Source of the DNA: Negaprion brevirostris
Taxonomy: Eukaryota
Reading direction: 5' to 3'
DNA length: 61,974 nucleotides
Assembly (NCBI GenBank): GCA_030324005.1
Contig: JARDVH010000031.1
Span: forward strand, 77,054,566-77,116,539
Part shown: positions 12,560 to 45,121 of the stretch, piece by piece
Layout: every line of letters starts with the position of its first letter
Numbering within the stretch: position 1 is the first letter of the stretch
Position numbers and translations under genes: made by a program
Notes under the pieces: model-generated
The model's database searches: none
Seen by the model: only the letters and a program-made list of their open reading frames with translations
Told to the model about the DNA's origin: nothing

Positions 12560-12583
12560 CTATTAGGAGACTCCAGGACTAAG
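12560..12583 (+). CDS. CLASP1: CLASP1 24-nt microexon, LLGDSRTK
   Basis: ttttcctgcaatcag acceptor, GTAGTA donor, phase 0-0. Matches the human alternative LLGDSRSK. Confidence 0.93.
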
Positions 12584-16382: not shown

Positions 16383-16446
16383 CCGTGTTGAATTGAAAAG
16401 ATTGTGTGAGATCTTCACTCGTATGTTTGCAGATCCTCACAGCAAG
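16383..16446 (+). CDS. CLASP1: CLASP1 exon, (S)RVELKRLCEIFTRMFADPHSK
   Basis: acttcacag acceptor, GTAACT donor, 64 nt, phase 2-0. Confidence 0.98.
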
Positions 16447-17146
16447 GTAACTTCTATGAAAGCAAGTTTTTGCAACCAGCTTCTTGCATGTACATGTAAT
16501 CAGCTTTGTGTTTTGTGTGAATGCATGCAATGTTTTTATAAATGGAGCATAACACGCTTTTTTTTAATTTCCTCACTTGTGGCAATACAGGACATTTGGA
16601 TGCAATGTTTAAAAAGATTATTGTTCTTATTAAAAATAAATCAACTTGCATATTTTCAAATAATGATTCAACTTTGGAAGTATTTATTCAGTAATCCCTT
16701 TACAGTTATAACATGTGTGTTGCTTGCAGCAAGTAGAATTATAATTATAAAGCTGATTTTTTAAAATTTAACATCCAATTTCCTGAAAGGATTTTGCGTA
16801 GACCCAAGTTCAAAAGACAGCCCATTTATCGAATGTTGGTGCAGTTTACACACACTATTTTAAAAATATTCTGCAAAAGTGATTGTTACATTTTTTAGTT
16901 CTAGAAAATTAAAGCACAGTAAATGATTTGAAAGATATACTGGAATGTGTATTTTGGCATGCAGACAGAACTGGCGGATGTGAGAAATTGTTTGTAATTT
17001 GCACAGCTTTATCTAAAAGCCTGTGTATTATGAAATGATTAATGAACATCAGTAACCATTGCGAAGCACTGTTGCTTTTAAATCTAATGCATTAATCAAT
17101 GGTTTGTTTTCTTGCATGTCCTGTCCTTTGTTGGAACTCACAACAG

Positions 17147-17149
17147 AGA
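17147..17149 (+). CDS. CLASP1: CLASP1 3-nt microexon AGA (Arg)
   Basis: caacag|AGA|gtaagt. Supplies the R of DPHSK-R-VFSMF, which neither flanking exon encodes. Confidence 0.85.
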
Positions 17150-17520
17150 GTAAGTGTTGCTTTTACTGCTTATCACAAACTAACATATAACAGGACCCTT
17201 GAAGTACCTTTTCATTTTCTGAGGAAAAGTTAGTTTAAAATCTGATTGAAGAATAATAAATATCAATTAGTTGCTGCGATAAGTGCAAATTTATAATTTA
17301 CAATCTAGTTAAGGATTGTTGACATTGAAAAAAATGCCTCATTTTAACCAATGGAACTGCGCCACATGATTTCACTTTTTAGCAAAATAAACTTTATTGT
17401 ACATAAAATAATGAATTAAAATAAATATTTTAAGTTTAATAATGTGGTTTAACAAACTACATTTGTTATTCACTCAGGTTTATGTCTTCCTCCAAGAATT
17501 CTCTTATAAAACATTTCAAT

Positions 17521-18095
17521 CTTAAAAGCTAGTATAAGGTGTTGGTATAAAGGTTGTATAGGGTGTTGGTAAGACCACACCTGGAGTATTGCATCCAGTT
17601 TTGGAGGCCCTATTTGAGGCAGTTCAGAGAAGATTCTCTAGATGAAGGAGTTGATGTATGAGGAGAAATTAAACAGTTTGGGCCTTTATTCATTGGAGTT
17701 TAGAAGTATGAGGGGGGGGTTGGATCGAGATAGATAAAATTGTTAAAGGGATTGATAAGGTAAATGTAGACCAATTGTTCCCTCTTGTGGGGAATCTAGA
17801 GTAAGAGATCACAGGTATAGGTTGCGAGGCGGTAGATTTAAAACAGAGATGGGGAGGAACTACTTCTCAGAAGGTGGTGAATTTATGGAACTCACTGCCC
17901 CATAGCGTGGTGGAGTCTGAATAGTTGAATGGTTTCAAGAGGGAGATGAATGTTTTCTAATGAAAAGAGGAATATGGGGAACAGGTGGGGAGGTGGATTT
18001 GAGACCAGGAAGAGATCAGCCACGATTTGATTGAATGGTGGAGTGGGCTCGAATGGGCTGAACTTGCCTACTTCTGCTCCTAATTCCTATGTTCC
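17521..18095 (+). mobile_element. CR1 LINE 3' fragment
   Basis: Encodes LYRVLVRPHLEYCIQFW-like RT C-terminus followed by a CR1 3' UTR. Confidence 0.85.
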
Positions 18096-18304
18096 TTTTT
18101 CTTTTCTGTGGGGACCACCCGTAGGCATGCCACAGTCCTCTGGAGATGATCTTTAATTCTTCTCCAGTATTCTCTATTCTCCACGATAAAATTTCTCATT
18201 TGCCATCTCTTGATTTGGAATAGCTCAGTTCTGGTCGCTTTTTCAGTACATCCAAGCTGCTTTAGCTGATTACTTTCTTTTGCAGTAAGACACTGTGAGG
18301 CCCA

Positions 18305-18498
18305 CTTAAAAGTTAGTATAAAGGTTATATAGGGGTTGGTAAGACCACATCTGGAGTATTGTGTCCAGTTTTGGTCTCCTTTTATTTGAGGAAGGATGTG
18401 GTGGCATTGGAGGCAGTTCAGAGGAGGTTTACCACATTGATTCCAGGGACAAAAGGGTTGACATATGAGGAGAGAGTTTGGGTTTGTACTTCCATTAG
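18305..18498 (+). mobile_element. CR1 LINE fragment
   Basis: LVRPHLEYCVQFWSP motif. Confidence 0.8.
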
Positions 18499-20395: not shown

Positions 20396-20559
20396 GTATT
20401 CAGCATGTTTTTGGAAACTTTAGTAGATTTCATCATTATCCATAAGGAAGACCTGCAGGATTGGCTGTTTGTGCTCCTGACTCAGCTTTTAAAGAAGATG
20501 GGTGCTGATTTGCTCGGTTCTGTACAGGCCAAGGTTCAGAAGGCACTAGATGTCACCAG
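20396..20559 (+). CDS. CLASP1: CLASP1 exon, VFSMFLETLVDFIIIHKEDLQDW...KALDVT(R)
   Basis: tttattgtag acceptor, GTCAGA donor, 164 nt, phase 0-2. Confidence 0.98.
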
Positions 20560-41090: not shown

Positions 41091-42750
41091 TGTAGAAAAC
41101 TGGCAGAAGCATAATGGGCCAAATTGTCCCACACCTGATTTGGTTCCAGCATCTACTGCAGTTTTCCACCAAAAACATTTAGTTCATGATTGTGCGTGTA
41201 CTCAGACTGCTGCGTCTGTGTCACATAAGATCCTGGAGTATACAAATGTGCTGACCTATATGAAGGTACATCTTGACCAATTATAATGAGGAAAGTTGAC
41301 ATGGACACAAAACAAATGTATTTGAGGTAGTTTGTGGATTTTGTGTCTGAACTAATCAGCAATTCTATTCCCAGAGATGATTCTGGAATTTGAATATTTA
41401 TGATGGGACTCTCAAAGATAGTGAAGTCAGTCAAAAAGTTAAAAGATGCTGTTGGTTATATGTGAGAATTTTTTTTTCAAAAGTAAAAGTATATCCAACA
41501 ACTCTGGATTCAGCATTTCAGACTGAAAGGATGGAATTTATTGATGTTTAAGGACAAATTCTTGTTGCTTTCTTGGAGTATTGAAGAATGCAGTGCTCTA
41601 CAGCAAAACAATGGGATGAATTAGTCGGTGCAATATTGAGTGGGGTGCCCAAGGTGTGGATGGGGCATTTGAAATCTTAAGTAAAAAATGAAGGGCTTCA
41701 TAGGAAGGTAATAAAAATAAATCTGATAAAACAGATGGGCAAAAGGGTTTAGGAGCATAATTGAAAATTGTTTGTTTGATTCAAGAGGGTGATCTGTAAT
41801 CAGTTGCAGACAAGGCAGTGGACCAATCTGACAGTTATGTACCAAAATGTCACTTCTATCCAAGCCCAGGCTGCGATTTGTTCGGTTTCTGGTTCAAGTA
41901 TACAATTGGTTGAACAGATTGGTGGAATGGGTAGTGTTCTCTGAAGTTTGGTTAAAGTTCAGGATGTAGTTAAGCATGGAGTTGAATCCCACCATGGCCA
42001 GGAGTACAGTGATTGTTTGTTCTCCTTCCTGGCTGCTGAACAGATCCCTTTAGGTGGACAATTGGCAGCTGAAATTTAATGTGGGGACCTGGATGTTGTT
42101 TAATTTGCCCACGAAAAGGGAAGATTTACAGGGTAAGGGAGTGCTCCTTCAGGGGGCCAGCACAGAAAACACAGGCTAAATGGCCTCCCTTGCTGCTGTA
42201 ACCATTTTCCACGATTGACAGACTTATGGTCTCTATTTCTGCAACTTGAGTGAAGAAATATCCTGGCTCAAAATGCTCCCTAAAATTTGCTTTAGTGCTA
42301 GTTTGCGCCACTGCAGCGGAGTTTGTGAAATACGTTTTTTAAAAAATAAAATGCCTGGGTTCCTTCTGTAGTACTATTCAGTGTGATTTCTATAATTTGA
42401 GAAAAAAATGAATGCAATAAAGGCTATGAAAATCGTTTGATGCGAAAACCCATGAGATGAAGAAAAAATTTGTAAAACCTCACTTGCACTTGCACACTGA
42501 CAGTCTAAAATGTTATTTATGTTATGCCAGTCTCTGTTGCCCTTGTATGTTTGTATGGTATTGGCTAGAGTGGAGTAAATCTGCTGCTGCTTGCTTGGAT
42601 GAGGTGTTCTCTGTTTGCTATTCTGCTTCTATTAATGTTTTGAAATTTTTCTTCAGTAAAGCATGACCAAAAGCCACTCGGAATATGGTTTTCTTTCTCT
42701 TTTTTGCCTTTCTCGTTCTTTCTCTTTCTCTGACCACACTGTGACTGCAG

Positions 42751-42867
42751 TCGATACTGGGGTTGGAGTGCAGATGGGCTGTCAAAGCATCCCCCCACCC
42801 CTTCTCAACCTCACTCCATCCCCACAGTTCCTACCCACAAGACCTTCCGGCGTTCTTACTCGCCCAG
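42751..42867 (+). CDS. CLASP1: CLASP1 117-nt cassette exon, (S)RYWGWSADGLSKHPPTPSQPHSIPTVPTHKTFRRSYSP(S)
   Basis: Long pyrimidine tract and ctgcag acceptor, GTAACT donor, phase 2-2. Matches human RLWGWSADGLAKHPPPFSQPNSIPTAPSHKALRRSYSP. Confidence 0.95.
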
Positions 42868-44874: not shown

Positions 44875-45121
44875 GTATCAAGGGATGGAGGAATTGCATC
44901 ACCGTCCTCTGACATTCGTGGAGGAGGTGAACCTGTGGAAGGAGGAAGAACTGCTCTTGACAACAAAACGTCTTTGCTTAACACTCCACCACCACGCTCT
45001 TTCTCTGGACCTCGGACTAGGGAATACAATCCATATAATTAGTCAGATACAATCAATATGTTTGACAAGACAGCCCTCAAAGAAGCTATGTTTGATGATG
45101 ATATGGAACAATTCCGTGATG
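44875..45121 (+). CDS. CLASP1: CLASP1 exon, VSRDGGIASPSS...EYNPYN*SDTINMFDKTALKEAMFDDDMEQFRD, with in-frame TAG at 45040-45042
   Basis: ttgttaaag acceptor, GTGAGA donor, 247 nt, phase 0-1. Homology to CLASP1 continues on both sides of the stop. Confidence 0.95.

Follow-up and report, generated by a model that had tools for sequence, protein, structure and literature searches.

The window analysed here is a 61,974-nt stretch of the Negaprion brevirostris genome (GCA_030324005.1, contig JARDVH010000031.1, 77,054,566–77,116,539), and coordinates given without a contig refer to positions within it. It holds the 3′ half of the CLASP1 gene on the plus strand, where the successive exons of a skate CLASP1 protein can be placed between 7451 and 58402. 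The gene was identified as CLASP1 rather than CLASP2 by the exon at 20396, which matches numerous shark and ray records named ‘CLIP-associating protein 1a’ at 100% identity. Between the two exons encoding HEAT repeat B of the TOG3 domain lies a 3-nt microexon, AGA, encoding a single arginine (Table 1). It sits between a canonical CAG and GTAAGT, is in frame with both neighbours and falls within the microexon size range of 3–27 nt. The initial annotation of this DNA had placed an AGA exon between caacag and GTAAGT, flanked by DPHSK and VFSMF, and the sequence bears this reading out.

Table 1. Coordinates of the AGA microexon, its neighbouring CLASP1 exons and associated intronic elements in the window (motif classes follow consensus sequences).
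Feature	Position	Strand	Remarks
Upstream CLASP1 exon, 64 nt	16383..16446	+	TOG3 HEAT repeat B, first helix and loop; ends DPHSK; donor gtaact
Two TGCATG copies (16485 and 16522) past the upstream donor	16485..16527	+	Doubtful role
Candidate branch point CTAAT at −63, in a 78-nt AG-free zone	17084..17088	+	Inferred; paralogue CTAAT at −61
Conserved block, T-rich run and TGCATG	17107..17118	+	11/12 identical to paralogue
Conserved purine-containing acceptor block ending CAG	17130..17146	+	15/17 identical to paralogue
Microexon AGA (Arg), 3 nt	17147..17149	+	Phase 0 on both sides; acaacag/AGA/gtaagt
Donor GTAAGT plus 3 nt, consensus	17150..17158	+	8/9 identical to paralogue
ACTAAC at +30, presumably QKI-type	17179..17184	+	Paralogue: CTAAC alone, at +29
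Downstream CLASP1 exon	20396..20559	+	Begins VFSMF, HEAT repeat B second helix; acceptor ttgtag/GTATTC

Further features were observed along the same gene. A 24-nt microexon encoding LLGDSRTK is located at 12560–12583; it has a paralogous counterpart, LLGDIRSK, at G000:C59:112410601, and the microexon tables of mouse and zebrafish contain rows that match it; the mouse Clasp1 row of this type falls in a neuromuscular cluster in the accessible part of the MicroExonator data (PMC7821500). Downstream of TOG3, the 39-codon exon at 42749–42865 (SRYWGWS...) is alternative, and CLASP1 records occur with or without it (P0046 versus P0007). An in-frame TAG at 45040–45042 interrupts the coding sequence of a CLASP1 exon at a position that is Tyr in the skate protein. 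Because position 45042 reads T in the genome of a related organism and the contigs of sequencing run X1 end exactly at this base, the TAG is likely an assembly error or a heterozygous site. The contigs of runs X1–X3 do not extend over the AGA microexon. On its 3′ side, several stretches within 17554–18444 have multiple diverged copies in the paralogue’s intron and are apparently interspersed repeats.

As no Arg codon is present at either the donor of 16446 or the acceptor of 20396, a shifted donor and a tandem acceptor were both ruled out as sources of the arginine. The pyrimidine tract mentioned in the initial annotation is set back from the acceptor: a Y-rich stretch (70% Y) extends 20–50 nt upstream of the exon, but the last 20 nt are just 53% Y. 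The possibility that the whole element is a pseudo-exon produced by chance was evaluated with a second-order Markov model of the window, applied to the 3.9-kb intron. Under this model, YAG-Arg-GTRAG is expected 0.0096 times in the intron and YAG-NNN-GTRAG 0.22 times; the AGA site is the sole YAG-NNN-GTRAG on the plus strand of the window, and three such sites occur in the 55.7-kb span of the paralogue. The motif by itself is only moderately unlikely to arise by chance, and its conservation in the paralogous gene provides the decisive support.

The second CLASP gene in this genome is CLASP2, the VFSMF exon of which is 100% identical to shark CLASP2 records. Its intron contains ctcaatag/AGA/gtaagt at G000:C59:112441188, 26 kb past the DPHSK exon. 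Conservation of the flanking intron was judged within this genome, between CLASP1 and its CLASP2 paralogue: with both sites anchored on AGA, identity is 11/12 from −40 to −29, 15/17 from −17 to −1, 3/3 in the exon and 8/9 in the donor, and the flanks of this block are identical at 5/30 and 7/29 positions. From −40 to −4, 27 of the 37 bases match, compared with a mean of 9.7 (sd 2.8) for 10,889 control pairs of YAG-NNN-GT sites. Three control pairs scored at least 27, all of them repeats with 16–17 copies across the two loci, and the three neighbouring true acceptors scored 8, 11 and 15 in the same comparison. Furthermore, a 28-nt pattern made from both paralogous sites, which matches these two by construction, has no third site in 2.69 Gb. 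A repeat origin was rejected: the 201-nt region around the exon gave one genome match, subject to caveats of the search tool, and two BLAST copies across both loci. Together with the read support for the mouse and zebrafish exons described below, these results make a chance or repeat origin highly improbable, and AGA is almost certainly a real exon. Judged from the sequence, it is likely spliced in this shark as well, and its use there is quite probably alternative.

The CLASP2 VFSMF exon lies at G000:C124:46577897–46578061, apart from the rest of the gene on contig C59, and probably belongs to a misplaced piece of the assembly; the order of the exons and the counterpart of a catshark cassette are the grounds for assigning the AGA site to this intron. 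On C59, a 5,074-base gap at G000:C59:112459983 precedes the next CLASP2 exon. Because the VFSMF exon sits on a different contig from the remainder of the gene, a search of the 30 kb upstream of it on C124 found no paralogous microexon.

Proteins with and without the arginine were then compared. The CLASP1 search returned 120 proteins, including 45 reading DPHSKR-VFSMF, 63 reading DPHSK-VFSMF and 12 of other sequence; the numbers are not independent, as they take in many isoforms from the same species. Among them were 27 Logan proteins, 19 with Arg, one without and seven not spanning the junction; we take the multi-exon proteins of this type to derive from spliced transcripts. The remaining 93 annotation-type proteins comprised 26 with Arg, 62 without and five others. 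The arginine is thus present in 19/20 junction-spanning Logan proteins versus 26/88 annotation-type records, in agreement with the earlier expectation that gene predictors miss this exon. A human cDNA record, BAH11926.1, also carries Arg. In the CLASP2 search, 94 of 119 new proteins lacked Arg, eight had it, 16 catshark models had Arg plus 13 residues and one was unspliced.

In sharks and rays, Arg is all-or-none per species in the CLASP1 annotations and discordant between congeners: it is present in Mobula hypostoma, Scyliorhinus canicula and Chiloscyllium plagiosum, and absent from M. birostris, S. torazame and the records of C. punctatum. For this reason we read the Arg-less shark annotations as missing the exon, and a genuine residue is probably missing from many gene models of shark CLASP1. 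This pattern would also be expected if the exon were effectively constitutive in the CLASP1 gene of this shark, with no switch at all and the Arg-less shark records being annotation misses. The donor is a perfect consensus, and Arg is found in 5/5 junction-spanning Logan proteins with the skate/catshark LWEIF variant (P0007, P0032, P0033, P0241 and P0243), both of which are consistent with constitutive use. However, two CLASP1 Logan assemblies, P0109 and P0254, lack Arg, and seven pairs among 618 proteins differ by Arg alone (CLASP1 from caecilians in two pairs and from cod in two, CLASP2 from catshark in one, and two Logan pairs). The conserved TGCATG and the tissue differences of the orthologous mouse row in heart and muscle in the accessible data (PMC7821500) also argue against it. 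We therefore consider constitutive use in this shark unlikely, and a regulated cassette exon remains the reading we prefer.

Other alternative exons insert next to the arginine. A mammalian CLASP1 cassette of 23 residues, which is acidic and enters the same HEAT-B loop, precedes Arg and is found with it in P0024 and P0270 and without it in P0011; the 13-residue catshark CLASP2 cassette follows Arg. As Arg is combined variably with these two cassettes, it behaves as a separate module. The idea that the 23-residue cassette extends the microexon on its upstream side was also considered and rejected, as the cassette ends in Thr and such an extension needs an xAG last codon; no counterpart of it was found in the window intron or in the paralogue (best scores 14–23 of 122). 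The catshark cassette has a match 800 nt 3′ of the paralogue’s AGA, a 39-nt segment at G000:C59:112441990–112442028 with a gtaagt donor and caa in place of the AG acceptor, which may represent a former exon, inactivated in this species. Alternative exons have thus entered the HEAT-B loop on at least three occasions (AGA, the mammalian 23-residue cassette and the catshark cassette). All five copies of the Arg codon seen are AGA, one of six codons available, a uniformity that speaks for constraint on the RNA no less than on the arginine.

Rows for matching exons exist in published microexon tables for mouse and zebrafish, which we presume, from gene positions and neighbouring rows, to be those of mouse Clasp1 (chr1), mouse Clasp2 (chr9) and zebrafish clasp1a (chr9). 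The tables used were Tables S1 and S4 of the MicroExonator study in the parts accessible (PMC7821500); they give no gene names, and rows were located by coordinates. Exactly two rows of the mouse Table S1 contain AGA as a whole word. The first, chr1_+_118547655_118547658, is a 3-nt AGA exon with 822 reads, flagged ‘Annotated’ and placed in cluster Included I2; the exon differs in skeletal muscle and heart and shows no difference in neural tissue. The second, chr9_+_113887044_113887047, is AGA with 2013 reads, likewise ‘Annotated’ and placed in the Non-Neuronal cluster NN1. Its direction in brain is −1, and it also differs in skeletal muscle; according to the accessible main text, NN1 changes are exclusions (PMC7821500). 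Both rows are typed ‘RESCUED’ and have high chance P values, as expected at 3 nt. In zebrafish, chr9_+_38268829_38268832 is AGA with 320 reads, in the same transcript as an LLGDSRNK row (Table S4, PMC7821500); no AGA occurs among the four rows of the brain table for the clasp2 region. Two more 3-nt AGA rows, lying in short introns, are listed in this zebrafish table at chr11:43646453 and chr11:44035126.

The rows neighbouring the mouse AGA exons agree with these gene assignments. At 6–8 kb upstream, 24-nt rows (PMC7821500, in the part accessible) translate by hand to LLGDARSK and LLGDIRTK, compared with LLGDSRTK in the window and LLGDIRSK in the paralogue. We infer that the mouse and zebrafish AGA rows are orthologues of the shark exon. 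Because the Clasp1 row has a PC2 value of +0.09, whereas PC2 is negative in all 25 listed of the 139 ‘Muscular’ rows, mouse Clasp1 likely skips AGA in heart and muscle, the direction being deduced from this sign (Clasp2 row, −0.03; PMC7821500, accessible part). Mouse Clasp2 skips AGA in brain, and its inclusion appears higher in muscle. The alternative use of the exon proposed at the outset therefore holds at least in mouse. The further suggestion that such exons are usually missed needs qualifying: in mouse the exon was not overlooked, because its matching rows carry the flag ‘Annotated’ and have been quantified.

RBFOX proteins are abundant in muscle, heart and neurons, and we take TGCATG to be an RBFOX-type motif on the basis of its consensus. 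All three copies pointed out in the initial annotation are present, but only that at 17113–17118 is kept in the paralogue, where it occupies the same −34 position and is accompanied by an extra copy at +37; the copies at 16485 and 16522 have no counterpart within 300 nt of the paralogue’s donor. Three TGCATG within 700 nt have a post hoc probability of about 0.01 under the Markov model, and the plus strand of the window contains 38 copies. Conserved TGCATG in the proximal upstream intron, as expected of RBFOX-repressed exons, is thus found in both paralogues. In mouse, RBFOX-dependent skipping fits Clasp1 in heart and muscle, where the direction comes from the PC2 sign, and Clasp2 in brain, but misfits Clasp1 in brain and Clasp2 in muscle. 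Since the mouse Clasp1 row is mostly included and shows no neural difference despite neuronal RBFOX, simple repression from −34 is insufficient to explain the mouse pattern. Moreover, the mouse Clasp2 row changes in the opposite tissues to Clasp1, though the shark paralogue has an equal −34 motif.

Microexons dependent on SRRM3/4 have a UGC within about 20 nt upstream of the acceptor. Here the closest TGC lies beyond that distance, at −34 in CLASP1 of the window and at −30 in the paralogue. By orthology, higher inclusion in neurons is likewise not seen, as the accessible mouse data record no neural difference for Clasp1 and neural exclusion for Clasp2.

To place the arginine in the TOG3 domain, we used 3WOZ (CLASP2 TOG3), the only TOG3 chain found among the PDB sequences, which reads DPHGK-VFSMF without Arg. 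In the accessible text of PMC6641166, W660 of HR-A and P699 and H700 of HR-B are the equivalents of Stu2 tubulin-binding residues, HR-B is modelled against lateral tubulin, the contacts of P699 and H700 being those of a docking model, and TOG3 is cited as promoting rescue. W660, P699 and H700 correspond to residues 19, 58 and 59 of the 3WOZ chain, where the Arg would be inserted between positions 61 and 62; the mapping onto the structure called for earlier thus puts it three residues past the HEAT-B Pro-His pair. In AlphaFold models, the second helix of HR-B spans 166–186 with Arg (starting at K166, with Arg in its first turn) and 165–185 without it (starting at S165), and the block pLDDT is 87 with Arg versus 97 without; the pair consists of two database proteins with different constructs and alignments, and the difference amounts to a 1–2 residue shift of a DSSP boundary. 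The Arg model lies 0.9–1.2 Å from 3WOZ (Foldseek E 5e-26, TM 0.97 by target). In skate CLASP1, six other HEAT-like turns have the Asp-x4-Val/Ile spacing of the Arg-less form (seven regex matches, one probably not a turn). These models suggest that Arg causes a one-residue register shift, lengthening the Asp-Pro-His loop and adding a positive charge. The description of the exon as toggling a positive charge in a TOG domain is therefore incomplete, because the insertion is also predicted to make the HEAT-B loop one residue longer.

The length of this loop was surveyed in 149 cluster representatives, 102 of which cover the junction, 95 of them with identity below 75%. The short loop is present in 94/95 of these distant homologues, named examples being amphioxus, Styela, Priapulus, Owenia and Haliotis, which indicates that HEAT-B loop length is constrained. 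The single exception, the Ciona intestinalis UniRef model P0286, has Tyr exactly at the Arg position and is either a gene-model artefact or an independent one-codon insertion. None of 14 lamprey records carries Arg; these and the invertebrate records are mostly annotations liable to miss 3-nt exons, and the lamprey query favoured Arg-less matches. As both paralogues have the element and the invertebrate and lamprey records do not, we conclude that the short loop is ancestral and that the exon dates back at least to the CLASP1/CLASP2 duplication. The initial claim of a one-codon Arg exon across jawed vertebrates is thus sustained and extended further back, to before this duplication.

We propose that a regulated one-codon cassette exon retunes the HEAT-B loop of TOG3, an explanation that accounts for the data best and that we hold to be somewhat probable. 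The exon would be defined by a conserved block from −40 to +9, comprising a distant branch point, a T-rich run and TGCATG, together with a consensus donor, and RBFOX-type binding at −34 may damp its inclusion in some tissues. Inclusion is predicted to add Arg such that the second helix starts at Lys rather than Ser, the Pro-His loop gains one residue and the face becomes more positive. The longer loop would likely tune the grip of TOG3 on the microtubule. That Arg changes TOG3–microtubule behaviour is slightly better than an even prospect.

The exon could instead be real and regulated, with Arg nearly neutral for tubulin because the helix N-terminus absorbs it, the element being kept for RNA reasons or for a non-tubulin partner. 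Both forms fold alike, the Arg model lying about 1 Å from 3WOZ, the codon is always AGA, and lamprey and invertebrate records manage without Arg, all in keeping with neutrality. However, because neither paralogue has lost the element since the two arose and 94/95 distant homologues share one loop length, a one-residue insertion is unlikely to be silent; the site also adjoins P699/H700. On balance we regard a neutral Arg as rather doubtful, while giving it more weight than constitutive splicing, and we retain the loop-retuning exon as our working explanation.

A broader and more tentative form of this explanation, which we consider possible but short of probable, is that a one-residue switch dating from or before the CLASP1/2 duplication in early vertebrates sets two TOG3 loop geometries and two levels of rescue. 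The paralogues would have kept the same 50-nt cis element and used it in opposite tissues, CLASP1 dropping Arg in heart and muscle and CLASP2 in brain, and the loop of the commonest CLASP1 form would be one for which the PDB sequences yielded no structure. If Arg alters the binding of TOG3 to microtubules, this exon would be about the smallest protein switch possible, kept in two paralogues across jawed vertebrates. CLASP constructs one residue apart would then not be equivalent, with 3WOZ lacking the Arg that 19 of the 20 junction-spanning CLASP1 Logan proteins carry. In addition, the shark paralogue pair isolates an element of about 50 nt that offers a ready minigene for the recognition of 3-nt exons.

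The exon is already known, being annotated and quantified in mouse; the present analysis contributes its copy in a shark, a cis element common to both paralogues, the placement of the arginine next to modelled tubulin contacts, and a contrast in tissue use between the paralogues drawn from the published table. The accessible main text of the MicroExonator article contains no mention of CLASP (PMC7821500). Within the literature searched, no report was found on the function of the TOG3 Arg or of a 3-nt CLASP exon. Clasp2 exons are mentioned without sizes in the accessible parts of PMC4387716, PMC5630039 and PMC11653684.

The closest counterparts are the mouse and zebrafish AGA microexons, which have the same length and sequence and each lie 4–8 kb 3′ of a 24-nt LLGD-x-R-x-K row, as in the window (PMC7821500, accessible part). 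They differ in being from other species and in being assigned to CLASP by gene position and neighbouring rows. On the protein side, 3WOZ represents the same TOG3 domain, but the chain crystallised lacks the Arg. In the same genes, the accessible texts describe a 24-nt Clasp2 exon (PMC13174390) and a neural Clasp1(A) microexon (PMC12868881) that depend on SRRM3/4. These resemble the AGA exon in their shortness and in a pyrimidine run set back from the AG, but they are included in neurons, whereas the AGA row of Clasp1 is classed as ‘Included’ and that of Clasp2 as ‘Non-Neuronal’ with direction −1, and the nearest TGC is at −34; Clasp1(A) differs from the AGA exon in this neural pattern. In the available part of PMC4317164, alternative micro-exons have their thymine enrichment set back by more than 20 nt, a 6-nt micro-exon occupies the paralogous position in APBB1/2/3, and TLN1 has a 3-nt micro-exon. 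The likeness lies in a tiny in-frame exon that recurs at the paralogous site of genes duplicated in vertebrates, within a binding domain; both isoforms occur in mammals, birds and fish, and the single-codon exon is a precedent (PMC4317164). Unlike the APBB and TLN1 exons, which are included in neural tissue, the CLASP exon adds one codon to a HEAT/TOG loop and is either skipped in neural tissue or broadly included.
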